64,000 nucleotides of DNA, from positions 21,394 through 85,393 of the forward strand of contig VGJQ01000001.1 in the NCBI GenBank assembly GCA_016867375.1. The letters are read 5' to 3'. Position numbers and translations under genes: made by a program. The notes beneath the pieces were generated by a model. That model was not told the origin of the DNA. It saw only the letters and a list, made by a program, of their open reading frames with translations, and did not search any database. Below are positions 9,608-54,845 of the stretch, piece by piece. Each line of letters opens with the position of its first letter. Position 1 is the stretch's first letter. The DNA comes from Candidatus Kaiserbacteria bacterium. GTDB lineage: Bacteria; Patescibacteriota; Minisyncoccia; Phycocordibacterales; UBA2100.

Positions 9608-9635
9608 TATCACACTCGTCAGGGATGCTGCTCGG

Positions 9636-17766: not shown

Positions 17767-17771
17767 TTACT

Positions 17772-18572
17772 ATGGGTATTCGTCTTGGTCAGCATTTTTT
17801 GAAAAATCAGTATTTTGCGCAAATGCTCGCGCAGGCTGCTCACATTACTCCGGATGACACCGTCGTCGAGGTCGGCCCCGGCAAGGGAGCACTCACCAAA
17901 GAGCTCCTCAAACATTCGCGCAGGGTCCTCGCCATCGAAAAAGACCCTGCACTGATCGAAAAACTGCGCGAAACATTTCCCGATGAAGTTGCAGGCGGCG
18001 CACTCACTATTATCAGTGGGGACATTCGCAATTTTAAACCAGAAACCTGTCGAGGTCTGACCTCGACAGGGTATGTGGTTGCGGCGAATATTCCTTACTA
18101 CATCACCGGCGAGATCATCCGCCAATTTTTGGAGTGCGACACACCTCCACGCACCATGGCGCTTTTGATCCAAAAAGAAGTGGCGCAGCGCATCGTCGCA
18201 CACGACAAAAAAGAAAGCATCCTTTCTATCTCGGTCAAAGCGTATGGACGCCCGCGCATCGTGGCAAAGGTAGGGAAGGGGTGTTTTAACCCACCACCAT
18301 CGGTAGATTCTGCCATCATCGCCATCGAAGATATCTCAAAAGACTTTTTCTCGGGATTTGATGAGCAATCTTTTTTCAAAGTGGTCCGTGCCGGCTTCGC
18401 CTCAAAACGCAAGTATCTCGGCAATAATTTGGCCGTCATATTTGAAAAGGAGAGGGTGTCGCAGGTATTTGCAGCACTCGACATCGCGGAAAAGACCCGC
18501 GCCGAAGATGTGCCGCTCCAAAAATGGAAACTTTTGACATTGCAATTATTCGAACGAGGCTTTCAAAATTGA
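17772..18572 (+). CDS. rsmA: 16S rRNA (adenine1518/1519-N6)-dimethyltransferase
   Basis: GQHFL N-terminal motif, VVEVGPGKGALT SAM-binding motif, and the NIPYYIT motif. Confidence 0.9.
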   Translation: MGIRLGQHFLKNQYFAQMLAQAAHITPDDTVVEVGPGKGALTKELLKHSRRVLAIEKDPALIEKLRETFPDEVAGGALTIISGDIRNFKPETCRGLTSTGYVVAANIPYYITGEIIRQFLECDTPPRTMALLIQKEVAQRIVAHDKKESILSISVKAYGRPRIVAKVGKGCFNPPPSVDSAIIAIEDISKDFFSGFDEQSFFKVVRAGFASKRKYLGNNLAVIFEKERVSQVFAALDIAEKTRAEDVPLQKWKLLTLQLFERGFQN

Positions 18573-18674: not shown

Positions 18675-19016
18675 CTACTGCGAAGAGCCGTGCATGATGA
18701 TCGAGCTACCTGACCGCACATCAATCGGCACGATGGTATAGAGACAAGCAGTCGGAGCACCCGCAAGCCCCAGGAGCCACTGCCCAGCATGGCTCGGCGG
18801 GCCAAAAGCGTACGAGCGCGTCCCGCTTGTCCAGATATAGACCCCTGGCACCGGGGGGCCGAGGCGAACGTAGATTGTCCTGTTGTAACAACGATGCACT
18901 TCGGACGCCTGACCACCGAAGGGAAATGCATACACGAGAGAAGGAAGCATCGCACATACCACCAGCAAGAGTGTCATCAATGCGACCGGTGTGCGCCACG
19001 TAGCGATGAGGGTCAT
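18675..19016 (-). CDS. Hypothetical small secreted/membrane protein
   Basis: N-terminal signal-like hydrophobic segment. Lies opposite what is probably a non-coding 5' extension of the plus-strand ORF. Weak support. Confidence 0.3.
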   Translation of the reverse strand: MTLIATWRTPVALMTLLLVVCAMLPSLVYAFPFGGQASEVHRCYNRTIYVRLGPPVPGVYIWTSGTRSYAFGPPSHAGQWLLGLAGAPTACLYTIVPIDVRSGSSIIMHGSSQ

Positions 19017-19115
19017 ATGCGTATCCTATCACCCCTTTTAGACACGAAGCGAGTTATCCCCCACGGCACAAAAGTGACACACACCCTCTCCAGGACCCGG
19101 TGTATCATTATCCGC

Positions 19116-20030
19116 ATGAAGTATCCGTACTTTTTGGGTGTCGTCGGCATTATCGCATTACTCGCCATAGGGGGAGCAATCGTTGACACGCGCGTGCCCA
19201 TCGGCGCTGGCGAGAGTACGTATAGCGGGGGTACACCCATTTATTTTGACACTTCCTCCTATGCACCCTATCAGCCGTCGACGCAGAATCAGACCCCTGA
19301 TGACAGCACTCCGGCAATCCCCACCATGCGTACGTATGACTCGTTTTCATATACACCAGACCCAAGCAAGGGCTCTGCGACAAACATCCCGAGCACGATC
19401 ATCCATTCTGATTCAAGCTTTGATTTCAATGCATTCATGCAGAAGCTGTCTTCATCGGGTACATCGGCTTCACAGATCCCTGTAGGCACATCGATTAATA
19501 CTCCTATTATCCAAGAAGAATCGTATCCGTTCGTCCCCCCCGAGCTTTTTTCATCGCCTGACGCACCACCTGCGCGCTCCGCACTCCAACAAGAGCTCTA
19601 TACGTATGGCAACACAGCAGGCTCTTTCCTAAAGACATACGAACAGATGCATGCCAACGACGTCGCGGTGATGCAGCGCTTTTTTGACACCCGGACAAGC
19701 GCACCAAATACGACCGCGCTGCGCCAAGTCGCCAACGACTTTAAGGCGGTGGGCCTCAATATGAAGACCGTGCAGCAGGTCCCCGCACCAGCCGCGTCGA
19801 TCCATAAAAATCTCGCTGAGTCGTACATCGTCGTCGCAGATAAGATGATCGCCATGCTCTCTACCGCAAACGACGAAGACTTCATCCAGGCAGTCCTCAC
19901 ATACAATGCGGCCGTTGAAGAAAACCTCAAACACCTCGTCGCGCTCATCGACACTTTTGCCAACAACGGCGTGAAATTTGGACCGAGTGAATCCGGGAGT
20001 GTCTTTATGTTTTCAAGCGTCGGCTTGTAA
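19116..20030 (+). CDS. Hypothetical N-terminally membrane-anchored protein (304 aa from MKYPYF)
   Basis: One N-terminal transmembrane helix followed by a Ser/Thr/Pro-rich linker and a helical domain. The stop codon TAA is part of a REP-like element. The ORF-track start at 18789 gives an Arg/Cys/His-rich, non-protein-like extension. Confidence 0.55.
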   Translation: MKYPYFLGVVGIIALLAIGGAIVDTRVPIGAGESTYSGGTPIYFDTSSYAPYQPSTQNQTPDDSTPAIPTMRTYDSFSYTPDPSKGSATNIPSTIIHSDSSFDFNAFMQKLSSSGTSASQIPVGTSINTPIIQEESYPFVPPELFSSPDAPPARSALQQELYTYGNTAGSFLKTYEQMHANDVAVMQRFFDTRTSAPNTTALRQVANDFKAVGLNMKTVQQVPAPAASIHKNLAESYIVVADKMIAMLSTANDEDFIQAVLTYNAAVEENLKHLVALIDTFANNGVKFGPSESGSVFMFSSVGL

Positions 20031-20116
20031 GGGCTCGTCCACACATAACGTACCCGTTATGTGTGGACTACACTTATGGCCCCGTTCATTTCGAGTTGTT
20101 AATGAACGGGATCTAA
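20028..20116 (+). repeat. REP-like element, full-length two-hairpin form (copy 2)
   Basis: taagggctcgtccacacataacgtacccgttatgtgtggac followed by tacacttatggccccgttcatttcgagttgttaatgaacgggatctaa. The same two-hairpin arrangement is at 36769-36862. Confidence 0.7.
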
Positions 20117-20170
20117 ACACACGCACATTCGGCATCACAACAACGCGCAGACGGATGATATACTTAATGA

Positions 20171-20986
20171 GTGGAAAACGAACGCTTTGACACCGGCGGG
20201 TCTTGGCGCATTATCGCGAGCGCAGCGCTTTCGATAGCGGTCGTCATCGGGATTCTTGCGTGGCAGTTCCACACACGGGTCATACAAGCACGACGAGTAG
20301 GGGATGCTTCTGCGACGAGCACCTCTCTGGAAACCCCGCGCAACAGTGCACGAGAGCTCGCCGAAAAACTCGGGCTACCAGACCCGACCGCGACATCGTC
20401 CACACCGGAAGAAATCGCACAGATCGGATCCAATGCATTCGGACAGATAGCGACGTACTATGCGATCTTGGAACAGAACAACGCCTACACACCGGAGATC
20501 GGCGCACAGATCGCGGCGAGCATTGCACCGAGCATCCATGCACGCGTCCCGTACTCGATGTACGACGAAAAGTCGCTTTCGACACATGGCGACACGTCAT
20601 ACGCGGGCATGCGCGCCTATCGCACCGCCCTGCAGACGTCACTTGCCCCGCTCAAACTCAACAAGGAGTACGAGCTGCACCTGTACGGTGCATACATGGA
20701 GACGCGTGATGTGACATACCTGACCAAACTCACTGCTGCCGCGCAGCATTATCGTGAAGCAGCAGGCCTCACGGCGCGCATCACGGTACCCAAAGATGCA
20801 ACATCTATCCATATCGCGGTTTTAAACGCAATGCAAAAATTTGCATCCACACTCGACCTCATGGTCGCCAATATTTCCGACCCGATCACATCGCTCGCAC
20901 TCCTGAGCGCATATAGCAAAGCGGAAGACGATATGGTCAACGCATTCACCACGCTCGACGACTACTATGCCAGCAAACAACCATGA
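20171..20986 (+). CDS. Hypothetical N-terminally membrane-anchored protein, architecture like 19116..20030
   Basis: Single N-terminal transmembrane helix then a soluble helical domain. It is the first gene of a long co-oriented block. Confidence 0.55.
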   Translation: MENERFDTGGSWRIIASAALSIAVVIGILAWQFHTRVIQARRVGDASATSTSLETPRNSARELAEKLGLPDPTATSSTPEEIAQIGSNAFGQIATYYAILEQNNAYTPEIGAQIAASIAPSIHARVPYSMYDEKSLSTHGDTSYAGMRAYRTALQTSLAPLKLNKEYELHLYGAYMETRDVTYLTKLTAAAQHYREAAGLTARITVPKDATSIHIAVLNAMQKFASTLDLMVANISDPITSLALLSAYSKAEDDMVNAFTTLDDYYASKQP

Positions 20987-22719
20987 AAACTAGCACACGC
21001 ATATATACTCAACAAAAAAAGGGAGTGATCATCGCATTCGCTTGTTTGACGATTGCATATCTCACACTCCTCCCTGCTATAGGCCTCGCACAGGAACAGC
21101 AATCACTCCCGGCACAAATCACCTCCTGCAGCCAAAACGGCAACGTCCCTGTAGAATCAGGAAATTCCGTGGGTGTCTCGCAGGGAAGCGGCACATTTGT
21201 CCCGGTCGCGGATCAGGCCGTCATCACAAACACAAATCTCATGATTCAAAACACGAGCAGGATCATCAGAAACACCGGCATGCTCGTATACAAAGAATGC
21301 GTCTTGCGCCCGCTCGTCAACGCACAACGAAAAGCGGTCACCTCGATGGTCGTGCGCAACGGTATAAACGCATACAACACGCAGCGCAACGGCGGACCGC
21401 TCTTCGCACAGAATATTATCCAAGAGCGTTTGTACCTCGCGCTGGATCCGCAAATCCTGGTGACCCTTGCCAATGGTACCTTCGACGCACTCAATGACCT
21501 CTTTGAAGGCACTATCAAATCCGCCGTCGGCAACAACTACTACAAGGCGACTCGCGAAAAGGCGAGCAGCACACTCGCGTGTCCGTATCGGGGAAATCTC
21601 AATGCAGCACTCAATGGCAGCCCCCAAGGGTCGACGCGCGATGCTCTTTTGGCATTTAGAAATCCGGCGTGCGTCCCACATATGGCGGCAGAAATGGCAA
21701 ATCAGGTGGCGTTCGACTATATGGGCGCTGCCGAAGAGAGTCTCCTTACCAACGTCAATTGGGGGCAGGGAAACTATCCGCAGGTACAGCTCGACGACAA
21801 CGGCAACTACGTCTTCACGACAGACACGATCGTGACCGCTCCCGCCTCTGCAGTGAAAACGGTCCAAGAACAACTCCTCACGTCGGGCTTCCGCATGCAG
21901 GAAAACGCCAACAACGTCAATGAGATGGTCGATGTACTCTTCTCCGACGTGGGGTCACGGATGATGTCGAGCCCGCAAGGCATGGGTGGTCTCGTTATGC
22001 CCGGCACCGGAGGCAGCAGCGGGGGTTCGTATCTGGATCAGGTCGTATCTCGATCCGGCGGCCAACTCATACAGATCGGAGGCAACGCGGCGCTCCAAAT
22101 CCTCAACGCCGCACTGACAGTCGAGCGCGCATACAATCAGGCGGTGTCTGCTATTGCCGCAAATCTCATCCAGACCATCAACCAGCTGCGCGCCGTCGAA
22201 CGCCAGTGCTTTACATCTCTGACACAAAATGTGTGTGTCGCGGGTACGATCTCCCCAGATGGCACTTCGTGTACGGGGGTTTCCGGCAACAATCTCACCC
22301 GTATTGCCACATCGACCGCCTTTTCTCAAGCGGTCGTCACCAATCAGATCGCACCACTGGCATCGACCACGCAGGCCAACATCACAAAATCAAACAACGC
22401 CATAACCATCCTCAGTCAAATGATTTCGACTGTCACCAACAATCCGAATGCACAAGCGAGCGTGCTTGCACAATACAATCAGCTCGCCGCACAAGGCACC
22501 TTCCATACCCAATCCGATGTCACATCTGCACAAGCGCAGCTGCAGACCGTCGCTGCCGCCACGAGCAATCTCGTACAAAACACCATCAACACCTGGGCAG
22601 GGACCGACAGCCAAGGAGAATCGACTATTCCATGGGATCACAGCATCTCTCCTGGAGTAGGGTGGTGTAATTATCAGAGCCAGGGGACACTCACCTCATG
22701 GGATCAGCGGTGGCGTTAA
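20983..22719 (+). CDS. Large secreted protein (signal peptide, 578 aa), Asn/Gln/Thr-rich C-terminal half
   Basis: N-terminal signal peptide ending AIGLAQEQ. No catalytic motif recognised. Overlaps the upstream gene by 4 nt. Confidence 0.55.
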   Translation: MKTSTRIYTQQKKGVIIAFACLTIAYLTLLPAIGLAQEQQSLPAQITSCSQNGNVPVESGNSVGVSQGSGTFVPVADQAVITNTNLMIQNTSRIIRNTGMLVYKECVLRPLVNAQRKAVTSMVVRNGINAYNTQRNGGPLFAQNIIQERLYLALDPQILVTLANGTFDALNDLFEGTIKSAVGNNYYKATREKASSTLACPYRGNLNAALNGSPQGSTRDALLAFRNPACVPHMAAEMANQVAFDYMGAAEESLLTNVNWGQGNYPQVQLDDNGNYVFTTDTIVTAPASAVKTVQEQLLTSGFRMQENANNVNEMVDVLFSDVGSRMMSSPQGMGGLVMPGTGGSSGGSYLDQVVSRSGGQLIQIGGNAALQILNAALTVERAYNQAVSAIAANLIQTINQLRAVERQCFTSLTQNVCVAGTISPDGTSCTGVSGNNLTRIATSTAFSQAVVTNQIAPLASTTQANITKSNNAITILSQMISTVTNNPNAQASVLAQYNQLAAQGTFHTQSDVTSAQAQLQTVAAATSNLVQNTINTWAGTDSQGESTIPWDHSISPGVGWCNYQSQGTLTSWDQRWR

Positions 22720-22728
22720 AATAGTGCT

Positions 22729-25362
22729 ATGAGTCGCTTTCACATACCACAGGTTCTCACACACAGCGTCTTGTATGTATTTTTTGCCTGCGCGATACTC
22801 TTCCTTCCCCTCCAGGTGTCATTACCCGCGCCAACCACACAAACCACTTCAATCGGTTACTCCGTGACGCTGAGTGCCGCACACGCCCAGACAGGCCCGT
22901 CCGCATCGACCAAAACGAAAGATCTCCCCACCTCATGCGGCGGCTGGGGATGGCTCCAAGTAGGAGTGGTCACCTGCGCCACACGATGGACCATATCCGT
23001 CCTCGCCACGCTCGTGATCCAGGCCGGTGTCCTTATCCTCGGCCTCGCAAGCGGACTATTTGGCCTCTTGATTGATCGCACTATCATCGGCTTTGGCGCC
23101 GCTGATGGTATTCTCACCAAAGGGGTGCAGGATGGCATCACTATCGCGTGGACCGCTTTGCGCAATATCTCCAACATCCTCATCATCGGCTTTTTCACCT
23201 TTATCGCCATCAACATCATTCTCGGCAGCGCCGAATTCGGTCAAAAGAAGCTCGTCGCCCGCGTCCTCATCGTCGCGATCCTCATCAATTTCAGCCTCTT
23301 CTTTACGAAAGTCATTATTGATTTTTCCAACTACACTGCCACACAGTTCTATCGCCAGGCGACCATACTGCAGACGAGACCAAACACCGGCGGCACCCCT
23401 GAAGGTATCGGCGACCAGTTTATGAATGCCCTCGGCGTGACCTCGTTTGCCCAGACCCAAGGGGAGATCTCCAAGCTCGGGGAGACACAAAATGGCATCG
23501 CATCCATGCTACTCATCTCGATCATGTCGTTTGTCATTCTGCTTGCCACAGCTATGGTGCTTTTCTACGGGTCATTCATCCTCGCTTCTCGCGCGATCCT
23601 CCTCGTCTTTCTCATGATTACCGCTGCTCTTGCGTTTACCACCTGGCTCATCCCGACATTTGCAAGTAAAGGATGGGACACGTGGAGAAAGGCGCTTATC
23701 GAAAGTGCGGTGCTCGCACCCATGCTCATGCTCTTCCTGTGGGCGACGCTCGCAATCGCACGCGCCCTCAAAGCGGCCAACAACGGCGGCACACTCGGCG
23801 GGGTGCTGGTAAATCCTGCCAACGCAGGTGATCTTGGTGCCTTGTTCTCATATCTCGTCATTCTCGGGTTGTTGTTTGCGACCTTTAAGGTGACGTATAG
23901 CTTCTCGCGAGACATCAGCGGATTCAATTGGGCCTCCGTCGCACCCGCAATCGGCGTCGCCGGCTTCGCGCGCGCTGGGGCATTTGCCGGTAAAAATATG
24001 AGTGCAATCGCCAGCCGCGGACTCAACGCCGCCGCGAATCGCATCACCTCGAACTCAAAAATGGCGACCCTCGGCAAGGGCGCCTTGTATGGCGCATCGG
24101 CACGTGCCGCTACCCTCAGTCTGCGCAGCCAAAACCTCATGAATACGGGTGTCGGTGCGCTCGTCGCGAGCCAAGTAAAGAAAACCGGCCTGACACAGCC
24201 AGTCTTGGCCGGAGCAAATCGCCCGCCCATCTTCAATGCAGCCCAACAAAGCGCCACAAATTCAATCCTGCAGGCTATTGCCGCAAAGAAGCCTCCCGCA
24301 CCACCAAGCATCACCCCGCCGCCAGTACAGAAGGCGCTGCCAAAGCCGCCGACTACTCCTCCCACACCCACAAAACCTCCGACAGCACCGGTTGGCGCCG
24401 CCTTACCAAAACCTCCTACAGCTCCGTCTACTGGAGCAGTGCAGCCTACCCAAGCTAAACCCGCAGCAGCTGGCCCGCAAGCGCTACCAAAACCGGCGGC
24501 GGCGAGTGCTCCCGGCACCACTCCACCTACGGGCGTACAGCGCGGCGGTGCCACTGATGCAGTGGGCAGCCAGATCGCAGAGGCACTGAAGGAAGGGGAG
24601 AAGAATAAGGCCGAGAGTAATAAGGCGGCAGCGGCAGCGAGTGACCAGAAGCAAAAACAGCTCACCGAAGAAATCGGCAGGGCGGTTGCGGGCGCTACAG
24701 CCGAAAGTGCACGAGAAACAGCGGAGGCAGTGAGAGCGGCAGGTACGGAGACACAAGCGGCTGTTGGAAAAATCGCAGAACAAGCAAGTACATCCCAAAA
24801 GGAAGTCGGGCAGAAACTAGCAGAAGAATTCAAAGGTGCTGCTGCTGACGTGAAAGGTGCCGCAGCCTCCGACGCCGCGACATTTACCAAGGGCCTGGAG
24901 ACCTTCCAAAAGACACGAAAAGAGGAGCTCGACCAAGCAACGGCTTCGGGAGCATGGGAGCGCGCCGCTTCTTCCCGCAAAGCGGAGGCGCGCGCTGTAG
25001 CTGAAAATATCCGTTCGGCCGCCCAACAAACGACGATACAAGCCTCGGCACGTTTTGCCCCCACACCCTCACATCCGCTCACTATTCCATCGGGGGGTAC
25101 TGCTGACACACAAGCGGCACAATCCCTATCCATGCGGCCCCAAAATATGCCCGGGAGTGCAACCGCGCATGTCGGCCAACCATCCATGAATATAAACAAT
25201 CTCTCATACGCGGACATCATCCGCGCGGGTACGCGCAGGGGCGGCGACAAACCCGGCACCGTCCCCGTCATTCGTCTGAGCGAACAACTCAAAGCCAAAC
25301 ACATGCCGCAGCCGTCCAATCCTGCCAATGACAACAGGCCGCCACATTCTCTCACCGCATAA
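22729..25362 (+). CDS. VirB6/TrbL-like polytopic membrane protein with a Pro-rich linker and a long Ala-rich helical C-terminal extension
   Basis: About 500 aa with many transmembrane helices. Then a PPAPPSITPPPVQKALPKPPTTPPTPTKPPTAP linker and an AxxxA-rich coiled C-terminus. Its position upstream of VirB3-like and VirB4 genes matches Gram-positive-type T4SS organisation. Confidence 0.5.
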   Translation: MSRFHIPQVLTHSVLYVFFACAILFLPLQVSLPAPTTQTTSIGYSVTLSAAHAQTGPSASTKTKDLPTSCGGWGWLQVGVVTCATRWTISVLATLVIQAGVLILGLASGLFGLLIDRTIIGFGAADGILTKGVQDGITIAWTALRNISNILIIGFFTFIAINIILGSAEFGQKKLVARVLIVAILINFSLFFTKVIIDFSNYTATQFYRQATILQTRPNTGGTPEGIGDQFMNALGVTSFAQTQGEISKLGETQNGIASMLLISIMSFVILLATAMVLFYGSFILASRAILLVFLMITAALAFTTWLIPTFASKGWDTWRKALIESAVLAPMLMLFLWATLAIARALKAANNGGTLGGVLVNPANAGDLGALFSYLVILGLLFATFKVTYSFSRDISGFNWASVAPAIGVAGFARAGAFAGKNMSAIASRGLNAAANRITSNSKMATLGKGALYGASARAATLSLRSQNLMNTGVGALVASQVKKTGLTQPVLAGANRPPIFNAAQQSATNSILQAIAAKKPPAPPSITPPPVQKALPKPPTTPPTPTKPPTAPVGAALPKPPTAPSTGAVQPTQAKPAAAGPQALPKPAAASAPGTTPPTGVQRGGATDAVGSQIAEALKEGEKNKAESNKAAAAASDQKQKQLTEEIGRAVAGATAESARETAEAVRAAGTETQAAVGKIAEQASTSQKEVGQKLAEEFKGAAADVKGAAASDAATFTKGLETFQKTRKEELDQATASGAWERAASSRKAEARAVAENIRSAAQQTTIQASARFAPTPSHPLTIPSGGTADTQAAQSLSMRPQNMPGSATAHVGQPSMNINNLSYADIIRAGTRRGGDKPGTVPVIRLSEQLKAKHMPQPSNPANDNRPPHSLTA

Positions 25363-25371
25363 CCACATCAT

Positions 25372-25908
25372 ATGGACACATCACACACTATAGACTTCGA
25401 AAAGGTAATGCATGAGCGGTTTGCACAGCTCCCTCCATCTATACAGGCCGCCATCACATCGGCCGATGTCGAGACGCACCTACGTGAGCTCGCCAAGACC
25501 CACCAACTTCATCTCGACCAGTGGAATCTGCTCGAAAACGAGGTCATGCTCACACTCTTGGGCCTCCAACAAATGTCCCAACTCAAGGATAATATTATGA
25601 AAGAGGTTGGTGTCTCCGATCAGGTGGCAACAGAGCTCGCCAACGACATCACACAAAATGTCTTCCAGCCGATCCGTGACGAGCTCGAACAACTACTCGA
25701 ACACCCCGCATCACAACCGGACACACCACCATCAGCCTCTGGCGCGGCCCAAGCATCAACACCAGCTTCCACTACACCCACGCCGACCCCTCCCACGCCA
25801 GACATAAAGGTGGCACGTGCCGCCACACCATCTACCTATCTGTCGCAGACTCCGAGTCATGAACGTAAAACCATAGACGGTGACCCTTATCGCGAACAAA
25901 TTAATTAA
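25372..25908 (+). CDS. Hypothetical protein with Thr/Pro-rich C-terminus
   Basis: ORF within the co-oriented block. No motif recognised. Confidence 0.45.
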   Translation: MDTSHTIDFEKVMHERFAQLPPSIQAAITSADVETHLRELAKTHQLHLDQWNLLENEVMLTLLGLQQMSQLKDNIMKEVGVSDQVATELANDITQNVFQPIRDELEQLLEHPASQPDTPPSASGAAQASTPASTTPTPTPPTPDIKVARAATPSTYLSQTPSHERKTIDGDPYREQIN

Positions 25909-26026
25909 ATCCTCTACGTATGTAGATTTGTGTGGGGGGATAGGGCACAAGCACAGTACCTGGACTGTAGTAGAATATAGATATGGTTGAAAGGAAGAGG
26001 GGTCATTCCACCAGCCTCATTTATCT

Positions 26027-26530
26027 ATGCAATTCCAGGTTCCCCAATTCATCGAGGTCGAGGACAAGATCTTTGGTCCGTTCACGTTCAGACAGTTCAT
26101 CTATCTCGTGGGTGGTGCTGGTGCGTGCTACCTTGTATGGCGCGTCCTGCCGGTATTTGTATCGTTGCCACTGATCATCTTTATCGCGCCGTTTTCCGTG
26201 GCGCTTGCCTTCTTTCAAATGAACGGCCGTCCGTTTATTCTCGCGCTCGAAAGCGGCTTCTTTTATCTCATACACTCAAAGTTGTACCTATGGAACAACA
26301 CGAAAAAACCGCTTGTCGCACGCGAAAAGACAAAAACAGCCGCAGCGACCAAGAACGGTCTCTACATACCTCGGCTTTCCGACAGCAAACTTCACGAGCT
26401 CGCCTGGAGCCTTGATATTAGAGAGCGCATCGCGAGCGGCACGACAGTGGAGGCCGAGCGGCAGCCAGCTCCCGTCGACGTACTCGCCCCCGTCCGCACT
26501 GCCCGCGACGCCATGACTAAAGCATCATAA
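26027..26530 (+). CDS. VirB3/PrgI-like small membrane protein (two TM helices)
   Basis: 167 aa. Two adjacent hydrophobic helices near the N-terminus (FRQFIYLVGGAGACYLVWRVLPVFVSLPLIIFIAPFSVALAFF). Sits immediately before the VirB4 gene, as VirB3/PrgI genes do. Confidence 0.45.
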   Translation: MQFQVPQFIEVEDKIFGPFTFRQFIYLVGGAGACYLVWRVLPVFVSLPLIIFIAPFSVALAFFQMNGRPFILALESGFFYLIHSKLYLWNNTKKPLVAREKTKTAAATKNGLYIPRLSDSKLHELAWSLDIRERIASGTTVEAERQPAPVDVLAPVRTARDAMTKAS

Positions 26531-26534
26531 ATCT

Positions 26535-27191
26535 ATGGAAGAAACCAACGCGCGCACATCCACCCGTTCGACACAAGACTTCGTCCCTATTTCGGAAGTC
26601 CGCGACGGCATTGTCGTTTTGAAAAACGGGGAATTGCGCGCAATACTCCTTGCATCATCCATCAACTTTGCCCTGAAATCCGAAGACGAGCAGACGGCAT
26701 TCATTATCCAATTCCAAAACTTCCTCAACTCACTCGATTTTTCCTGCCAGATCTTCGTACAATCGCGTATGCTCGACATCCGCCCCTACATCACCACCCT
26801 CGAAGCGCAGTACAAACAACAGCTCGACGACCTCATGCGCATACAAATCCGCGAATACATCGAATTCATCAAGAGCTTCACCGAAGCCGCCAACATTATG
26901 ACCAAAAATTTCTTCGTCGTCGTGCCGTACACACCGACAATCATCAAGAAAGCTACCGGCCCTACCTCGTACCTCCCCTCATTCGGCGGCAAAAAAGACA
27001 GCGGCACAGTCGAGACGTCGTTTGAAGAGCACGTCTCCCAGCTCGAGCAGCGCATCTCGATCGTCCAACAGGGCCTGGTACGCACCGGAGTACGCACCGT
27101 CCAGCTCGGCACCGAGGAAGCTATCGAACTTCTCTACAAGATGTTCAATCCCGGCGAAGAAGGAAAACCTATGCCCGTACCTACCGACTGA
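26535..27191 (+). CDS. Hypothetical cytoplasmic protein immediately upstream of virB4
   Basis: 218 aa with no transmembrane helix. 4-nt gap from the VirB3-like gene. Function unknown. Confidence 0.45.
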   Translation: MEETNARTSTRSTQDFVPISEVRDGIVVLKNGELRAILLASSINFALKSEDEQTAFIIQFQNFLNSLDFSCQIFVQSRMLDIRPYITTLEAQYKQQLDDLMRIQIREYIEFIKSFTEAANIMTKNFFVVVPYTPTIIKKATGPTSYLPSFGGKKDSGTVETSFEEHVSQLEQRISIVQQGLVRTGVRTVQLGTEEAIELLYKMFNPGEEGKPMPVPTD

Positions 27192-27258
27192 TGCCAGGGT
27201 ATAATGACACACAAACGCATATGTCCTCACCACAGCACGACTACCTCATACACACACT

Positions 27259-30200
27259 ATGGCACTCCTAGACCTCCTACACCTCGGCGACAAGAACAAG
27301 AAAGATACGGAGGGCCCGGGGATAATCCCGGTATTGCCCGCGGAGATCTACCAGACGGGCGTGCTCGACCTGCAAGACGTCATCGCACCGCATGCACTGC
27401 AGATCAATTCGCGCGAGCTCGATCTCGGCGAGAAGATCGCGCGTACCTTTTTTGTGATCTCATATCCGCGCTTCCTTACGACAGGGTGGTTTGCGCCGAT
27501 CATCAACATGGACAAGGTGATCGACATTTCCATCTTCGTCCACCCGATGGATACCAATGAGATGCTACGCAAATTCCAAAAAAAGGTCGCCGAGGTGCAG
27601 AGCCAGATATCCACACGCGAAGAGAAGGGAATGGTGCGCGATCCGATGCTCGACACCGCTTACCAAGACCTCGAACAGCTGCGCGACAGCCTCCAGCAAG
27701 CGCAGGAGCGCATTTTCGATGTCGGCCTGTACCTGACGATCTACGGCAACACACGCGAGGAGATCGACAAGGCCGAGGCAGCGGTACGCTCGATCCTCGA
27801 AAGCCGCCTCGTCTACATCCGCCCCGCACTCTTCCAACAAGAACAGGGGTTCCGATCTGTCTTGCCCTTATGCACTGATTTACTTGATGTACACACCAAG
27901 CTCAATTCGGCCCCGCTCTCGTCGATCTTTCCCTTCATCTCGTTTGACCTCACGTCAGACCGCGGCATCCTCTATGGCATCAACCGCCACAATTCATCAC
28001 TGATCCTCTTCGACCGCTTTAGTTTGGAGAACTATAACTCGGTCACTTTTGCAAAGTCGGGCGCAGGCAAAAGTCTTCGCGGCAACGAGTCGGTACTCAT
28101 ACGCCGCAATGGTGTAATACATAGAGAAAGAATCGGTTCGGTCGTTGAGCGACTTATCAAAAAGCATGGCGCCACAAAAATCGATGAAGAGCTCGAGGGT
28201 GTCATTGACCCTGGTTTTGAAGTATTCAGTTTCGACAAGAATATGCGGGCAGGGTGGAGTATGGTTTCTGTCGCCGCACGCAAAGAGGCCCCGGATATCT
28301 ACTATACATTCAAAACAAAAAGTGGCCGGGAAGTAACCACAACCGCCGATCATAATATGCTCGTGTTGCGCGACTGCAAGGTGATCGCCGCAAAAAGTGA
28401 AGATGTACGCGAAGGGGAGTATATCCCTTTACCGCGACAGGTGCATGCGACAAGCGGCGGCTCACATCACGAGCTAACGAAAGATTTTGCTTCACTATTA
28501 GGTTGGATATCGGCCGAGGGAGCATTCACTGATCGCTCAATCGTCATCAGCAATACAGAACAAGAAGCCTTGGATCAGATTGCGACACTCTGTGCCAATC
28601 TACACTTGAATCATACGCGAAACGCGCGATGGATTGCCGTGTATGGTAAAGCATTGCGCGTATACTTGCACTCGATCGAGGCGGATGGTTTGTCGGGAAG
28701 AAAACGCGTTCCTGCGCCCGTCTTTGGCGCGTCGCGCGAAATAGTTGCCGCGTATTTGCGTGCGTATTTCGAAGGCGATGGAGGGGTCGAAGATCACGAA
28801 GTAACCGTTCTTTCAAAATCAAAAGAGCTCATTTCCGGCATATCATATCTTTTGTATTACTTTGGTATCATCTCACGCATCCAAAAACGACACAAACGAT
28901 ACGCGGCGACAGGCGGTTACCGCACGTTCTGGCAATTACAGATTTCAGGTCAGGATAATATCAGAAAATTCCAGGAGTATGTCGGTTTTGTTTCGACGCG
29001 CAAACAGTCGGCGCTCGCCCCTATTGCCGCGAAAGCGGGTAATACCAACGTTGACATTGTTCCTGGGTTGCAACCGCTCGCGCAAGAACTCGCGTCGCTT
29101 TTCGACTCGCAGCTCTCCGACATCGCCGACTTTTCCGCGCTCAAACAGGGGCGCAACCTCTCTCCACAACACCTTGGAAGGTTCGTATCGACGATGGAGG
29201 AACGTGTCCAACGCTTCAAAGACCTCTATCCATTTATGCAAAAGCTGCAAGACTTGCCTACTGTAGGCGCGATCATCAAAAAAGCCGACGAAGATCGGGA
29301 ACTGAATCGCGGACTTATCGAGGCTATGAGCAGTTCATGGTTCACCATCAAACAAGGAATGGCCCCGCGCGCCAAAAACGCATTAAAAATATTCGAGACG
29401 GCGGGAATGGATGCACCAAAGACAGTGGATGAATTAAAAACGATGCTCAACGAAGGTATCGCGAATCTCCGCGTGCCGGCGAACGGTTTTGACGGCGGTT
29501 ATCTGGCGCGGACATTAGGCGGTATGCGAGACAATGCATCATATGATTTGCTGCACGCCGCCGCCCAATTCATCGCGGGAGAGTACCACCGCATATTGCA
29601 AAACCTGAATCGCGTTGAGGAAATCATCACCACACTCAAAACGCTCGCCGAGGCGGACCTTTTTTGGGATCCGATTGTATCCATCACTAAGAAAGAGAAT
29701 ATAGGAGACAAATACGTGTATGATCTTACTGTTGATGACGAAGTGTTCCTGGCCGGGCACGGCGGCATGTTCGTGCACAATTCGTATACGACCAAACTGG
29801 AGATATTGCGCTCCCTCATGTTCGACACCGAAGTGATCGTGATCGACCCGGAGCGCGAATATGAATACCTCGCAGAGACGGTCGGCGGGCGCTACTTCAA
29901 CATCTCACTCTCCTCCGAACATCACATCAATCCCTTCGACCTGCCGATACCGCGCGAAGATGAAAATCCATCAGACGTGCTGCGCAACAACACCATCGCA
30001 CTCGTCGGACTCTTCCGCATCATGCTCGGCGGACTCACTCCCGAGGAAGATGCAATCATCGATAAAGCCATCACCGAGACATACGCGCTCAAAGACATCA
30101 GCGCTGATGCCAATTTCGCCGCCGTCGAACCGCCGCTTCTCTCAGACTTCGAGCTCGTACTCTCGGGCATGGAAGGATCAGAATCGCTCGTACAGCGACT

Positions 30201-30930
30201 CGCCAAATACACCAAGGGCACCTGGTCGGGCTTCATGAATCGCCCCACCAACGTCGATATGAATAAGAAACTCGTCGTCTTCTCGGTGCGCGACATGGAA
30301 GACGATCTCAAGCCCGCCGCCATGTACATCATCACACACCACATCTGGAACACCGTGCGTAAAGAGCTGCGCAAGCGCCTCCTCGTCATCGACGAGGCAT
30401 GGTGGATGATGCGCTCTGAAGATACTGCATCATTTCTCTTCTCGATCGCAAAGCGCGGACGCAAATACTACCTCGGCATCTCGACCATCACCCAAGACGT
30501 CTCCGACTTCCTCAACTCTCCGTACGGCATTCCCATGATCACCAACTCATCGATTCAGCTCCTCCTGCGCCAATCTCCGACATCGGTCGATCTCGTCCAG
30601 AGCACCTTCAAACTCTCCGATGAGGAAAAATATCTCTTGCTCGAATCCGACGTGGGGGAGGGGATTTTCTTCGCCGGACTCAAGCACGTCGCACTCAAAG
30701 TGATTGCATCGTACACCGAAGACCAGATCATCACCTCTGACCCATCACAAATCCTCGCCATCAAGAAAGCGAAGCAAAATCTCGCCGCAGCAGGTGAGGG
30801 CGGCCCCGCCGCTGAAGCAGCTATCGCCGAAGTGTCCGCCCAAACGATGGTAGAACATGCTGCGCCCGGTGCCGACACCGCGGGCGTGGGTGCAAGCTCT
30901 CTCAACAGCAATGCGCTTAAGAGCGTATGA
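27259..30930 (+). CDS. virB4: VirB4-family type IV secretion ATPase (Gram-positive TraE/PrgJ-like) interrupted by an intein in the Walker A P-loop
   Basis: The N-terminal region (RTFFVISYPRFLTTGWFAPII...ISIFVHP) matches VirB4/TraE proteins. Walker A FAKSGAGK|...|SYTT is split by a 570-aa insertion. Walker B LLVIDEAWWM and C-terminal motifs are intact. The extein is about 653 aa. Confidence 0.85.
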   Translation: MALLDLLHLGDKNKKDTEGPGIIPVLPAEIYQTGVLDLQDVIAPHALQINSRELDLGEKIARTFFVISYPRFLTTGWFAPIINMDKVIDISIFVHPMDTNEMLRKFQKKVAEVQSQISTREEKGMVRDPMLDTAYQDLEQLRDSLQQAQERIFDVGLYLTIYGNTREEIDKAEAAVRSILESRLVYIRPALFQQEQGFRSVLPLCTDLLDVHTKLNSAPLSSIFPFISFDLTSDRGILYGINRHNSSLILFDRFSLENYNSVTFAKSGAGKSLRGNESVLIRRNGVIHRERIGSVVERLIKKHGATKIDEELEGVIDPGFEVFSFDKNMRAGWSMVSVAARKEAPDIYYTFKTKSGREVTTTADHNMLVLRDCKVIAAKSEDVREGEYIPLPRQVHATSGGSHHELTKDFASLLGWISAEGAFTDRSIVISNTEQEALDQIATLCANLHLNHTRNARWIAVYGKALRVYLHSIEADGLSGRKRVPAPVFGASREIVAAYLRAYFEGDGGVEDHEVTVLSKSKELISGISYLLYYFGIISRIQKRHKRYAATGGYRTFWQLQISGQDNIRKFQEYVGFVSTRKQSALAPIAAKAGNTNVDIVPGLQPLAQELASLFDSQLSDIADFSALKQGRNLSPQHLGRFVSTMEERVQRFKDLYPFMQKLQDLPTVGAIIKKADEDRELNRGLIEAMSSSWFTIKQGMAPRAKNALKIFETAGMDAPKTVDELKTMLNEGIANLRVPANGFDGGYLARTLGGMRDNASYDLLHAAAQFIAGEYHRILQNLNRVEEIITTLKTLAEADLFWDPIVSITKKENIGDKYVYDLTVDDEVFLAGHGGMFVHNSYTTKLEILRSLMFDTEVIVIDPEREYEYLAETVGGRYFNISLSSEHHINPFDLPIPREDENPSDVLRNNTIALVGLFRIMLGGLTPEEDAIIDKAITETYALKDISADANFAAVEPPLLSDFELVLSGMEGSESLVQRLAKYTKGTWSGFMNRPTNVDMNKKLVVFSVRDMEDDLKPAAMYIITHHIWNTVRKELRKRLLVIDEAWWMMRSEDTASFLFSIAKRGRKYYLGISTITQDVSDFLNSPYGIPMITNSSIQLLLRQSPTSVDLVQSTFKLSDEEKYLLLESDVGEGIFFAGLKHVALKVIASYTEDQIITSDPSQILAIKKAKQNLAAAGEGGPAAEAAIAEVSAQTMVEHAAPGADTAGVGASSLNSNALKSV
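28072..29781 (+). mobile_element. Intein (570 aa) with a LAGLIDADG homing-endonuclease domain, inserted in the VirB4 P-loop
   Basis: Starts SLRGNESVLIRRNG (Ser1). TTTADHNMLV (block B). LAGLIDADG-like motifs LLGWISAEGAF and LRAYFEGDGGV. Ends GMFVHN followed by Ser+1. Removal restores GAGKSYTT. Confidence 0.8.
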
Positions 30931-31280
30931 GTCCACATCGTGGTATAAGTCTCGGAGCCAATATCGCGCTTCAGACATGTGCGCTCATTATTGATGGTCT
31001 GCAAGTTGTTGTCAGTCTGTTGAGTTTACTTCCATTCGTTGGATTCGTGCTCTCTTATGTTTTAGGTGTCACACTTAATATCTTAGCGTTCCTTCTCTTT
31101 GGGTTTTGGTTTTCCGTGCTCGGTGTCTGTATTTTTAGGAGTTATCCGCTCCATTTTATTGTCGCAATCATCCTGGAGAATGTCCCTCTCTTTAATTTTG
31201 TTCCTGGGTGGTGGGGATTTGTCTCATATATCATCGATAGGGAGAATGCGAAAGCATCTGGCTCATCCGGTACGCTATAA
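30927..31280 (+). CDS. Hypothetical small polytopic membrane protein
   Basis: 117 aa with 3-4 transmembrane helices. 4-nt overlap with the virB4 stop. Confidence 0.5.
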   Translation: MSPHRGISLGANIALQTCALIIDGLQVVVSLLSLLPFVGFVLSYVLGVTLNILAFLLFGFWFSVLGVCIFRSYPLHFIVAIILENVPLFNFVPGWWGFVSYIIDRENAKASGSSGTL

Positions 31281-31288
31281 TATACAAT

Positions 31289-32344
31289 ATGGCCTTAGTT
31301 AAAAGAGCGGGAATGTTGGTACCGACGATTCTCTTGTTCCTACTCATTTTCTTCACGTTTGCGCAAGCCCAAGCAATCTTCACCGCACCAGATCCTGGCA
31401 CACATATACAGATCATCATGAGCCCGCAATACCCTTCTGCGGGGGAGACCGCACATCTCGTCGTCCGAGGGGGATCGCTTATCAACATCAGCGACAGCAC
31501 CATCATCTGGTCTTTAAATGGCACTGTCATCTCAAAAGGGGTGGGGCGCTCTTCTATCGATATGAAAATTGGCCCGCTCGGACAAGCACACAATATCACG
31601 GTGATCATACAATCGCCCGACGGTTCGAGTACATCAGAATCACTTTCATTCGTACCTACCCATATCGATCTTCTCATTGATTCCGACTCGTATACACCGC
31701 CATTTTACCGAGGACGCGCCCTCCCGTCTCCGGGCACGCAGCTACATCTACAAGCTTTGACGTATTTCAAGCGCACAAACGGAACACACATCCCTTCCAG
31801 TTCGATCATATACACATGGAGACGCAACAATCAGGTCCTCGGCACCGTATCGGGAAAAGGACGCTCAACCGTCACCATACCGGCTCCCGTACCCTACAGT
31901 ACCGACACCCTCTCGGTCGATGCGACCACCGCAGATGGCTCTCTGCGCGGATCTGCCACCATACGCCTCTCATCGGTTGATCCTGTCCTCGCACTATACC
32001 AAGATCACCCACTGTTTGGCGTGATGTATCATCAACTGATGGGAGGTGACACGATGATTCCTGATTCGGAGGCGACATTTGTTGCAGTGCCATACTTCTC
32101 GGGAATCTCAAGCCCCACCGACCCACAACTGCGCTACACCTGGACAGTCAACAGTGTGGCCGCCCCGACAAATGCCACGCGCCCCGACAAAATCGTCATC
32201 AATGCGGACAAGTCGGACGGCAAAGCTGTAATCGAGCTTTCACTGACACACGCCACCAACTTCTTTATGAATCTCAAACAGACATGGGACGCCGTGTTTC
32301 GGACCACCACCTCTTTTGACAATCCGTTTTCAGCTGGCCTATAA
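31289..32344 (+). CDS. Hypothetical secreted protein (signal peptide, 351 aa)
   Basis: Signal peptide MALVKRAGMLVPTILLFLLIFFTFAQAQA. No recognised domain. Confidence 0.5.
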   Translation: MALVKRAGMLVPTILLFLLIFFTFAQAQAIFTAPDPGTHIQIIMSPQYPSAGETAHLVVRGGSLINISDSTIIWSLNGTVISKGVGRSSIDMKIGPLGQAHNITVIIQSPDGSSTSESLSFVPTHIDLLIDSDSYTPPFYRGRALPSPGTQLHLQALTYFKRTNGTHIPSSSIIYTWRRNNQVLGTVSGKGRSTVTIPAPVPYSTDTLSVDATTADGSLRGSATIRLSSVDPVLALYQDHPLFGVMYHQLMGGDTMIPDSEATFVAVPYFSGISSPTDPQLRYTWTVNSVAAPTNATRPDKIVINADKSDGKAVIELSLTHATNFFMNLKQTWDAVFRTTTSFDNPFSAGL

Positions 32345-32350
32345 CACCGT

Positions 32351-33619
32351 ATGAAAACATTGAGACTCGTACTACTCTACATGCTTGCCGCACTCCTCGT
32401 TATTATTTTAGGAGGTGTTACCGGCTGGTATTTCTTTTTACACATTCCTCAAGAAAAAAGTGCTGCTATAGACGCCGCGCGCGGACTGGGGCCCTCGCCG
32501 CTCTCCTTTACAGGAGGAAGCACACAAAAAAATGTAAGCATGGTCGTGAGCGGCGAATCTGGGACAAGCACCACTCCAACGCCCGACACAGCTTCGTCGA
32601 CACCCTCACACCTCTGGCAGGTCGACAAAACGCCCGTGGCAGGCATGCGCTTCGTGAAGCAGGGGACCACGACGACACTTCATTTTGTAGAGCGCGCCAA
32701 CGGATTCTTGTTTACCGCTGACTATGCGCAGCGATCGACTGTCCGCATCACTGAAACACTCATGCCGAAAATGTATGAGGCATTTATGAGTGCCGACGGG
32801 GGGGTTATACAACGATCACTTGATGAGAGTGGCTCCATCACCACCTTCGTGTCGACCGTGGGTGCGACCACCTCGAAGACAAGCACCTCGACCGAAAAGA
32901 ATTCACTCAACGGCTCATATATCGCAAAAAATATTCACATACTCGCTGTTCATCCGTCCGCACGCTCGTTCTTCTATTTTATCTCCAATGACTCCGGCGG
33001 GGTCGACGGCATGACCGCTTCTTGGAGCGGGACAAAACCGAAAAAGATATTCAGCTCGACCATGAGGCATTGGATTCCACTCTGGCTCGCTGACAACCGT
33101 CTCGTCATTACAGAAGGTGCGTCTGACGACCTTCCAGGCCATAGTTATAGTGTCGCAAGCGACGGATCTCTCGTACTCCTTCTCGGTAATGTGCCAGGGC
33201 TCACCATCCTCCCACACCCTTCCTCAAAAGCGCTAATCTACGGATCGTCGATGGGCGGCAAGCTGACACTCTTCACGCAGGGGGTAGCGAGTACGACGCC
33301 AACCGCGCTTGAAATAGAGACTATCGCGGACAAATGTGTATGGCTTGAGAGTAAGAGTCTGATCGCATACTGTGCAGTGCCCTCCACCCCACCATCCGGA
33401 AAATTTCTCGACTCGTGGTACCGCGGAGCAGTGCACACTGTCGATAACTGGTGGAAGATCGATGTGGCCGCGAACGCAGCGATGCAGATCTACTCACCAA
33501 AAGAATCTGACGGTGTAAAAATCGACGTCGAGCGCCCCATGATCGACCCGACCGGAAATTATCTCGCCTTTATCAATGCATCCGACAAGTCGTTGTGGAT
33601 GTTAAAAATACCTCAATAA
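32351..33619 (+). CDS. Hypothetical N-terminally anchored extracellular protein (422 aa)
   Basis: N-terminal transmembrane helix then a Ser/Thr-rich linker. No recognised domain. Confidence 0.5.
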   Translation: MKTLRLVLLYMLAALLVIILGGVTGWYFFLHIPQEKSAAIDAARGLGPSPLSFTGGSTQKNVSMVVSGESGTSTTPTPDTASSTPSHLWQVDKTPVAGMRFVKQGTTTTLHFVERANGFLFTADYAQRSTVRITETLMPKMYEAFMSADGGVIQRSLDESGSITTFVSTVGATTSKTSTSTEKNSLNGSYIAKNIHILAVHPSARSFFYFISNDSGGVDGMTASWSGTKPKKIFSSTMRHWIPLWLADNRLVITEGASDDLPGHSYSVASDGSLVLLLGNVPGLTILPHPSSKALIYGSSMGGKLTLFTQGVASTTPTALEIETIADKCVWLESKSLIAYCAVPSTPPSGKFLDSWYRGAVHTVDNWWKIDVAANAAMQIYSPKESDGVKIDVERPMIDPTGNYLAFINASDKSLWMLKIPQ

Positions 33620-34050
33620 TAAGTATGCGCATACGTACTATCGCCACCCCACTTGTCGTCTGTTTGTGCATGATCGCAGTGTTTTATGTGGCCACGACCA
33701 TGGCGGCACATGCACAAGGCCAGCCTGGTCAACAAACATTCGTGTCGTTATCAAAAATTGAACAACAATCTCAAAAAACAAGCGGAATGTTTGCGGACAG
33801 AGATCTTCCCACCTTCATCAACCGTATTTTCTTCTTCCTCATCACGCTCGGCGCTATGCTCGCAGTGGGACGACTCGCATACGCCGGATGGCTGTACATG
33901 CTCGGCGACAATTACGGCAACCTCAGCAAGGCAAAGACTATCATCGGCAATGTGGTAATCGGCCTCTTACTCCTCCTCTCAATCTGGCTGATCCTCAACC
34001 TGATAAATCCGCAGATTCTCAATCTGGATGTGCTCCAGTCGATCAAGTGA
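33595..34050 (+). CDS. Candidate VirB2/TrbC-like pilin (signal peptide plus two hydrophobic helices); probable start at 33625
   Basis: Signal peptide ending AAHAQ. The mature part of about 110 aa has two long hydrophobic helices separated by a short polar turn, the generic T4SS pilin architecture. Assigned by architecture only. Confidence 0.35.
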   Translation: MDVKNTSIISMRIRTIATPLVVCLCMIAVFYVATTMAAHAQGQPGQQTFVSLSKIEQQSQKTSGMFADRDLPTFINRIFFFLITLGAMLAVGRLAYAGWLYMLGDNYGNLSKAKTIIGNVVIGLLLLLSIWLILNLINPQILNLDVLQSIK

Positions 34051-35813: not shown

Positions 35814-36155
35814 TTATTGATAAAAATTATTAGTGCATAGTAGAGTGTGAATATCAGCCCTCAACTGATCAAATGTGGCTTGTACGCTCGCCGCATTTGC
35901 ATAAAGGGCAAGGGCGACCGGCTTCTTGATATGCCCCACCTCCAGACGCACGATTTCCCGGCAGCGACGCTTGATGCGGTTGCGGTCCGTCGCCTTCCGA
36001 ACAGCTTTTTTGGCTACAATACAAGCTATTTTAGGGTGTGTGCCCACGGGAAGGGGGGTTATGGCAAGCATACAATAGACCCCGCGCACGCGGCGCGTCT
36101 TTTGGGTAGAAAGTGCCTTAAAATCAGAGCGTGTAAGCCGAAATCGAGAGGGCAT
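35814..36155 (-). CDS. rnpA: Ribonuclease P protein component
   Basis: 113 aa and basic. The start codon overlaps the rpmH stop (TAATG). RLTRSDFKAL...KRRCRE pattern. Confidence 0.85.
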   Translation of the reverse strand: MPSRFRLTRSDFKALSTQKTRRVRGVYCMLAITPLPVGTHPKIACIVAKKAVRKATDRNRIKRRCREIVRLEVGHIKKPVALALYANAASVQATFDQLRADIHTLLCTNNFYQ

Positions 36156-36289
36156 TAGACGGTGATTTTTGCGCGCCCCTTGCGGCGGCGGCGGACAAGG
36201 ACTTTGGCGCCGGTCTTGGTGGCACTACGCACCAAAAAACCATGGGTCTTCGCTCGTTTACGCTTTTTGGGCTGGTATGTTCGCTTCAT
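36155..36289 (-). CDS. rpmH: 50S ribosomal protein L34
   Basis: Translates to [44 protein letters not shown] (44 aa). Absent from the ORF track because it is under 60 aa. Confidence 0.95.
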
Positions 36290-36345
36290 GCGGCCACTAT
36301 ACCGTATCTATACCCAAACTCAAGTTATTGGGGAGGGGTTATTGG

Positions 36346-36461: not shown

Positions 36462-36554
36462 CCATACGGCCACATTCCTGACACCAACCTCCGGGCAACG
36501 TGCGTGGCCGTGTGTTTTGCCGTCTTCGCAGCCGCGACTAATCACACCCACCCT

Positions 36555-54840: not shown

Positions 54841-54845
54841 TCACT

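Follow-up and report, generated by a model that had tools for sequence, protein, structure and literature searches.

A VirB4-centred type IV secretion locus beside the replication origin of a Candidatus Kaiserbacteria chromosome

Gene content of the VirB4 block

We analysed a 64,000-nt stretch of a Candidatus Kaiserbacteria genome (assembly GCA_016867375.1, contig VGJQ01000001.1, positions 21,394 to 85,393), hereafter the window, which carries a block of genes built around a VirB4-family ATPase of the kind found in type IV secretion systems (T4SSs). Between 20171 and 34050, open reading frames (ORFs) follow one another on the plus strand without interruption, and their junctions are short or overlapping, as an initial annotation of this DNA had described. 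That annotation counted fourteen genes, a number that had to be corrected. The interval holds 11 ORFs, and 14 are reached only when 16999-17766, ksgA (17763-18572) and 18789-20030 are added. Since one member of a paralogous pair, designated g02 (19116-20030), sits 5' of 20171, the block really starts at ~19116; its functional extent is thus ~19116-34050, with 12 ORFs once g02 is counted. Scans for promoters and terminators gave no signals above shuffled expectation. A Shine-Dalgarno sequence (GGAGG-like) was not obvious in the 30-nt stretches that precede the start codons of the block (e.g. 20141-20170, 20953-20982 and 22699-22728), which is a visual, unquantified impression.

The ORF at 27259-30930 encodes the VirB4-family ATPase that had been proposed there, with matches to the Pfam domains P-loop_TraG, AAA_10 and TraC_F_IV. 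The precursor owes its length of 1223 aa to an internal intein of 570 aa (aa 272-841), and the spliced product would be 653 aa. With the intein removed, the protein scored 364 bits against NCBIfam conju_CD1110 (cutoff 325), as a VirB4 of the monoderm (MPF_FATA) type. The preceding ORF (26535-27191), which had not been recognised in the initial annotation, encodes a TrsD-like protein (NCBIfam TrsD, NF041427; E=4.5e-8, below the curated cutoff). It covers N-terminal positions of the VirB4 models (98-233 of VirB4_plasma and 2-119 of CD1110), and spliced VirB4 covers the complementary remainder (293-893 and 185-732, respectively). Because complementary parts of full-length VirB4 models are matched, the pair behaves as a split VirB4, in which the TrsD-like protein is a separately encoded VirB4 N-terminal domain.

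Two further components were identified directly. The protein with two transmembrane (TM) segments encoded at 26027-26530 belongs to the PrgI/VirB3-like family (PF12666, PrgI; E=2.3e-11, 44.5 bits against a cutoff of 27), and the pilin-like protein at the 3' end of the block (33595/33625-34050), a VirB2-like T4SS pilin that carries a signal peptide and a pair of hydrophobic helices, matches PF18895 (T4SS_pilin; 35-36 bits against a cutoff of 26.6, E=7e-9 to 1.6e-8); both calls had been made before and were borne out. The pilin also matches the NCBIfam Mbov_0395 pilin-like family (E=7e-4). Its start is more likely the ATG at 33625 than the GTG at 33595; the resulting 141-aa form is the one in the public gene call and still matches PF18895.

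The product of 22729-25362 is an extended, 877-aa polytopic protein with ~7-8 hydrophobic segments, a Pro-rich linker and a long hydrophilic tail. These features agree with the VirB6/TrbL-like assignment in the initial annotation, and support at the level of protein families came through orthologs rather than from the protein itself. When 19 orthologous TM domains from related genomes were searched, 4/19 matched PF04610 (TrbL/VirB6, best E=1.4e-5) and 1/19 matched TrbL_4. A tblastn search of 72,556 plasmids with the VirB6-like domain gave no match, and alignment of the family with PrgH of pCF10 by hhalign was not significant (E=0.087). From the transitive matches of its orthologs, its topology and its conserved place upstream of PrgI-TrsD-VirB4, we conclude that this protein is probably a VirB6.

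The other block genes encode accessory proteins, most of them membrane-anchored or exported. Two anchored proteins at the 5' end had been described as paralog-like. The relationship is real, in that the families of g02 and g03 (20171-20986) match each other over ~140 columns in profile-profile alignment (hhalign 97.7%, E=2.4e-12), but g02 lies outside the block start given in that description. The paralogy is visible at the profile level only, as BLASTP of g02 against g03 was not significant. g02 combines an N-terminal TM anchor with a C-terminal helical domain, an assignment based on the profile match, the TM segment and synteny; no Pfam or NCBIfam family was found for it. Its long ORF starts at 18789 and places the TM segment at aa 114-132; translation probably begins at the ATG at 19116, which immediately precedes this segment. 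g03 is likewise a helical-domain protein with one N-terminal TM segment, and alignment of its family with PrgL of pCF10 was not significant (hhalign, E=0.36). g04 (20983-22719) is a 578-aa secreted or anchored protein with an N-terminal hydrophobic segment, whose family alignment contains conserved Cys columns. g06 (25372-25908), a 178-aa protein with no TM segment, is soluble and probably cytoplasmic; it ends in a D-P-Y-x-E motif (DPYRE in the window), of which D171, P172, Y173 and E175 are invariant in the family alignment. Profile searches of PDB sequences with the g03, g04 and g06 families gave nothing significant, and a Pfam scan of all their orthologs returned only sporadic, unrelated matches. 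g10 (30927-31280) is a small, very hydrophobic membrane protein of 117 aa, identified from its hydrophobic segments, which has no family match and is not similar to the pilin.

For g11 (31289-32344) and g12 (32351-33619), the two most conserved unknowns, AlphaFold2 gave confident models from alignments drawn from the protein database. In these models, g11 is an exported protein with three tandem immunoglobulin (Ig)/FN3-like beta-sandwich domains, and g12 is a membrane-anchored seven-bladed beta-propeller, with an N-terminal TM helix and a disordered linker preceding the propeller. g12 is 100% identical to FJY93_00250 from a metagenome-assembled genome of Ca. Kaiserbacteria.

Conservation of the block and the intein in VirB4

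With spliced VirB4 as query, relatives were found in at least 559 species-representative genomes; the counts below refer to the best 80 loci, against which every window protein was searched by tblastn. VirB4 is 74-94% identical across these 80 loci, which are labelled Patescibacteria/candidate phyla radiation or unclassified, with Ca. Kaiserbacteria as the top matches. The most widely conserved companion is g11 (79/80 loci), followed by the TrsD-like protein, whose gene lies directly upstream of virB4 in all 78/80 loci where it was matched (median identity 61%), PrgI (76/80) and g12 (73/80). The three-Ig protein and the propeller, present in 73-79 of 80 species, form a conserved accessory set. 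Matches to the VirB6-like protein were found in 63/80 loci, always with the gene 5' of PrgI-TrsD-VirB4, and to g06 and the pilin in 58/80 and 55/80. The 5' genes are less frequent (g03, 29/80; g04, 22/80; g02, 18/80, syntenic), and g10 was matched in 4/80. The commonest order is ksgA-g02-g03-g04-VirB6-g06-PrgI-TrsD-VirB4-g11-g12-pilin-jag-yidC-rnpA-dnaA-dnaN, followed by a penicillin-binding protein gene; in more distant members, the order of the pilin and g12 is swapped.

The setting of the block is conserved as well, as the order ksgA-[block]-jag-yidC-rnpA-rpmH-dnaA-dnaN recurs in most of the 80 related species genomes. Because gene order is conserved across related species, the block is vertically inherited core chromosome, not an island or an integrative conjugative element (ICE). 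We weighed an ICE, or its decayed remnant, with a relaxase, a type IV coupling protein (T4CP) and an integrase outside the window, and consider it extremely improbable. Such an element would account for the best VirB4 family, CD1110, being conjugative and for the PrgI, TrsD and pilin-like families all having been defined on mobile elements. Relaxases, almost absent from Patescibacteria, were nevertheless found in 103 of the 3,035 genomes surveyed by Quinonero-Coronel et al. 2025 (PMC12102498). Against an ICE stand the shared position of the block between ksgA and jag-yidC-rnpA-rpmH-dnaA and the range of VirB4 identities, which is what a core gene passed on vertically would show. The GC content of the block is host-like (0.535), no integrase was found among the window ORFs, no tRNA or repeat boundary flanks the block, and the sole tRNA of the window lies at 56747. 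In agreement with the initial annotation, no Pfam family of VirD4, VirB11 or relaxases was detected in any window ORF of at least 150 aa. More than 19 kb to the left of the block and 30 kb to the right are thus free of a relaxase or T4CP, as is a further 4.6 kb beyond the right end of the window, in which no VirB11 or integrase was found either. An ICE is largely refuted by the synteny and was rejected on that ground in favour of a core-chromosome locus.

The VirB4 of the window differs from its nearest relatives by its intein (28072-29781), which contains a splicing domain (PF14890, Intein_splicing, 7.5e-18) and a LAGLIDADG homing-endonuclease domain (PF14528, LAGLIDADG_3, 8.7e-21) and splits the Walker A motif (GAGK|S). 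The junction residues can be read from the sequence: the intein starts at Ser272 (SLRGNESV...), contains TTADH as its block B (TxxH) and ends in ...FVHN, followed by Ser842 at position +1. The insertion is flush relative to an intein-less Kaiserbacteria ortholog (L003), in which residues 8-267 and 268-620 correspond to residues 12-271 and 842-1194 of the window protein, with SGAGK|SYTTK at the flanks; the intein-less site is GCAGGCAAA|TCGTATACG. The GC content is 0.502 in the intein and 0.553 in the exteins.

None of the 80 closest related species loci contains this intein. A database search with the intein identified 21 relatives, of which the closest 16 were mostly 33-43% identical, with three at 54-64% over short stretches. 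Wherever the host protein could be identified, it was a Patescibacteria VirB4 (Yanofskybacteria, Andersenbacteria, Falkowbacteria and 'Patescibacteria group'), and in those related inteins that were inspected the N-junction is likewise GK|S and the C-junction HN|SY. Judged from these sequences, the distribution has the pattern of a sporadic homing allele, and a homing intein appears to target the VirB4 P-loop recurrently within Patescibacteria. Endonuclease activity of the window copy is uncertain, because compared with its relatives it is missing ~85 residues in the interval from block B to the first LAGLIDADG motif.

Five VirB4 inteins, in Firmicutes and Proteobacteria, have been listed previously (Novikova et al. 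2016, PMC4760082). Like them, the window intein is of class 1, carries a LAGLIDADG endonuclease and interrupts a nucleotide-binding motif of a P-loop ATPase; it differs from the listed VirB4 inteins in that its host is a chromosomal Patescibacteria VirB4. No mention of inteins in Patescibacteria VirB4 was found in the literature searched, and PMC12102498 does not mention a VirB4 intein. The intein in the motor ATPase is thus a previously unreported detail of a known locus.

A second intein-bearing protein lies upstream of the block. The UvrD/PcrA-type helicase encoded at 13841-16918 (1025 aa) contains Intein_splicing, Hint and Hom_end_hint domains between its N- and C-terminal helicase domains; counting VirB4, inteins occur in two P-loop proteins within a 15-kb span.

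Chromosomal surroundings and the origin region

On its 3' side, the block adjoins jag, yidC, rnpA and rpmH, then dnaA, dnaN and the origin (oriC). The initial annotation had noted jag-yidC-rnpA-rpmH and oriC next to the block, and this was confirmed by Pfam matches, DnaA boxes and GC skew. The position of rpmH on the minus strand (36155-36289), a pair of perfect DnaA boxes (at 36694 and at 36763) and the minimum of the cumulative GC skew (~37-39 kb) place oriC immediately downstream of the block.

The intergenic region between rpmH and dnaA contains a near-perfect hairpin or palindrome of ~350 nt (36343-36692), directly 5' of the two DnaA boxes. Folded as RNA, it has a dG of -195 kcal/mol (z=-12.4 against shuffles), and a 14-nt tandem duplication lies at 36324-36351. 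It has no Rfam match, and no copy was found in 84 fetched loci. The gap between yidC and dnaA is 1399 nt in the window, compared with a median of 667 nt in relatives. The palindrome could be an inserted element resembling a miniature inverted-repeat transposable element, or a structure of the origin itself.

The initial annotation had also placed comEC, a separate gene for a metallo-beta-lactamase (MBL) domain and two PilB/PilC sets in the same window. All of these were found except a second PilC. The PilB and PilC genes (26-814, 1594-2814 and 48047-49747) encode two PilB-type ATPases (T2SSE; the second with an MshEN domain) and one PilC (T2SSF), and no PilC-sized ORF flanks the second PilB. 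ComEC (9486-11153) consists of the DUF4131 and Competence domains only. The MBL domain that is usually fused to ComEC is encoded by a separate gene 1.2 kb downstream (12367-13254), and a superoxide dismutase gene lies between the two on the opposite strand.

These genes bear on an alternative in which the block encodes a DNA-uptake machine, similar to ComB or Ced, that imports host or environmental DNA to the ComEC encoded 9 kb upstream. We consider this very improbable. The window does carry comEC, the separate MBL-domain gene, recJ and the UvrD-type helicase, and it lacks a relaxase and T4CP, as does the ComB system of H. pylori; moreover, T4SS loci of the class ABY1 sit with comF, recG and radA (PMC12102498). 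VirB4 also has a weak local match to the archaeal DNA-import ATPase CedB, but this match reaches 35 bits where the cutoff requires 700, and it is confined to ~70 residues of the P-loop region. Neither a VirB7, VirB9 and VirB10 core nor a CedA-like protein was found, and the conserved neighbours of the block in Paceibacteria are the origin and housekeeping genes, not competence genes. Furthermore, according to PMC10633639 and PMC12857230, deletion of comEC in Southlakia ends competence but not viability, the T4SS is essential, and competence needs type IV pili. Because comEC deletion spares viability in the account given there (PMC12857230), the essentiality of the T4SS is not explained by ComEC-dependent DNA uptake. 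The DNA-uptake machine was rejected mainly on this published genetics of Saccharibacteria.

Two other features of the window were noted. Upstream of ksgA, 16999-17766 encodes a protein similar to IS200/REP-associated tyrosine transposases (RAYT; Pfam Y1_Tnp, E=0.008; NCBIfam REP_Tyr_transpos, E=2.5e-6). In related loci, a RAYT homolog lies inside the T4SS block, between g06 and PrgI (e.g. 8098-8586 of locus L011), which suggests that the RAYT-like gene is a mobile or domesticated element that hops around the region. Downstream of polA, 54145-61282 contains a run of large plus-strand ORFs (231, 528, 455, 236 and 588 aa) with no Pfam or NCBIfam family.

Interpretation and comparison with known systems

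Encoded in the block is a cytoplasmic-membrane translocon, in which the N-terminal domain of VirB4 is the separate TrsD-like protein. Its other subunits are the PrgI/VirB3 anchor, the extended VirB6-like protein and the VirB2-like pilin, which is exported by Sec. A second group of products is extracytoplasmic and likewise conserved, comprising the TM-anchored propeller, the three-Ig protein, the two paralogous anchored helical proteins and the Cys-containing 578-aa protein. Taken as a whole, the locus is very probably an instance of the known origin-adjacent chromosomal T4SS of Patescibacteria, a VirB4-centred, vertically inherited and non-conjugative machine that would act between an epibiont and its host cell. 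The initial annotation had proposed a minimal VirB4-centred apparatus for DNA uptake or cell-cell interaction rather than a classical conjugative element. The chromosomal, VirB4-centred and non-conjugative parts of that proposal stand. DNA uptake is disfavoured, and with at least 12 conserved genes, including the TrsD-like one, the system is not minimal.

Several points weigh against assigning the locus to the Patescibacteria T4SS. The VirB6-like protein of the window has no direct significant match of its own in Pfam, NCBIfam, PDB sequences or plasmids. VirB8-like families and VirB1-like hydrolases were absent from the block proteins and their orthologs in sequence searches, and VirB1 homologues are associated with virB4 in Paceibacteria (PMC12102498). 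A T4CP or relaxase could sit elsewhere in the genome, and many distant VirD4 homologues have been reported in Patescibacteria (PMC12102498). The splicing competence of the VirB4 intein is deduced from its motifs. Finally, essentiality and a role other than DNA transfer are extrapolated to Paceibacteria from one Saccharibacteria species.

The composition of the block raises a further alternative, a pilus or adhesion organelle in which VirB4 builds a VirB2-like pilus and the Ig and propeller proteins attach to the host, with no translocation of substrates. A VirB2-like pilin is indeed present although MPF_FATA systems are normally without one (PMC12102498), three-Ig and beta-propeller architectures are typical of adhesins or scaffolds, and there is no coupling protein that would recruit substrates. 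However, the VirB6 and VirB3 channel subunits have been kept and are conserved, and adhesion is already served by the type IV pili that these genomes encode (PMC10633639). Some T4SSs that have no T4CP, among them Ptl and Brucella VirB, are nonetheless able to secrete proteins (PMC12102498; PMC12857230). We regard an organelle of adhesion alone as very improbable and favour a Patescibacteria T4SS that would translocate substrates.

How this T4SS might work can be outlined from the established biology of T4SS components (VirB4, VirB3 and VirB6 are reviewed in PMC12102498 and PMC12857230). VirB4 and the TrsD-like protein would dock on PrgI and VirB6 at the membrane, and VirB4 would power the extraction of pilin and its polymerisation into a pilus-like conduit. 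In the window genome, the 570-aa intein would have to leave the Walker A motif before the ATPase becomes active. The anchored propeller, the Ig-domain protein, the g02/g03 pair and g04 may form the part that spans the wall or contacts the host. The cargo would be protein or small molecules exchanged between epibiont and host cell, not DNA moved by conjugation; a pilus conduit for exchange with the host has also been the subject of speculation in a 2025 nomenclature review (PMC12857230). A bolder proposal is that Paceibacteria swapped the usual wall-spanning parts of Gram-positive systems (VirB8-like and VirB1-like proteins, LPXTG adhesins) for a lineage-specific extracellular module. In this proposal, the propeller, the three-Ig protein, the duplicated anchored helical protein and the Cys-rich 578-aa protein would build an undescribed host-contact structure around the VirB2-like pilus, and in some lineages the machine would be gated by conditional splicing of the Walker A intein of VirB4. 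We think this proposal unlikely to be correct.

As in H. pylori ComB and the archaeal Ced system, a chromosomal VirB4-type ATPase is present without a relaxase, but unlike in these systems, no VirB7/9/10 outer-membrane core and no CedA were found among the window families. The order of the VirB6-like, VirB3-like and VirB4 genes is that of PrgH-PrgI-PrgJ in the Prg/Pcf system of pCF10, whose PrgJ is annotated in the CD1110 family, the same as the window VirB4. Other parts of pCF10 were not found here, namely its T4CP, its relaxase, the hydrolase PrgK, the VirB8-like protein PrgL and its LPXTG adhesins; pCF10 in turn is without a pilin. A TrsD-like protein precedes VirB4 as in the TrsC-TrsD-TrsE order of the Trs system of pGO1 (PMC12102498).

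In Southlakia epibionticum ML1, epibiotic growth requires the T4SS cluster SEML1_0006-0019 (Wang et al. 2023, PMC10633639). That cluster has a Gram-positive-like composition with pilins and is without coupling and relaxase proteins (PMC10633639). The window locus resembles it as an origin-proximal chromosomal cluster with Gram-positive-like subunits, a pilin and no recognisable relaxase or coupling protein within the cluster. Southlakia belongs to the class Saccharimonadia and has six divergent pilins, with peptidase and lysozyme genes 3' of virB4, whereas the window genome belongs to the class Paceibacteria; essentiality has been shown experimentally in Southlakia alone. The Patescibacteria T4SS is considered one of the most intriguing members to have joined the T4SS superfamily in recent years, and in Saccharibacteria the epibiotic way of life depends on it.

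The window locus matches the Paceibacteria-type loci of PMC12102498. In that survey, the VirB4 proteins of Patescibacteria group as a clade inside MPF_FATA, and TrsD accompanies them more often than any other component. PrgI/VirB3, VirB6 and VirB2-like pilins are encoded near virB4, and a T4CP gene is seldom close by. The loci of Paceibacteria and Microgenomatia lie close to dnaA, dnaN, rnpA, ksgA and rpmH (PMC12102498). The window locus has in common with these loci a TrsD homologue next to VirB4, PrgI/VirB3, a VirB2-like pilin and, probably, VirB6. Like them, it is without a relaxase or nearby T4CP, lies beside dnaA, dnaN, rnpA, rpmH and ksgA, and is of monoderm (MPF_FATA) ancestry. It departs from them in that a VirB1-like hydrolase went undetected and in having a single pilin gene instead of an array. 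The propeller, the three-Ig protein and the paralog pair are not named in PMC12102498. The locus is thus a clean Kaiserbacteria example and no new kind of system, and it shows accessory genes that are conserved across Paceibacteria, details that could guide structural work on the Paceibacteria machine. To the system already described, it adds small new points: the VirB4 intein allele, the folds of the accessory proteins and the ~350-nt palindrome at oriC.

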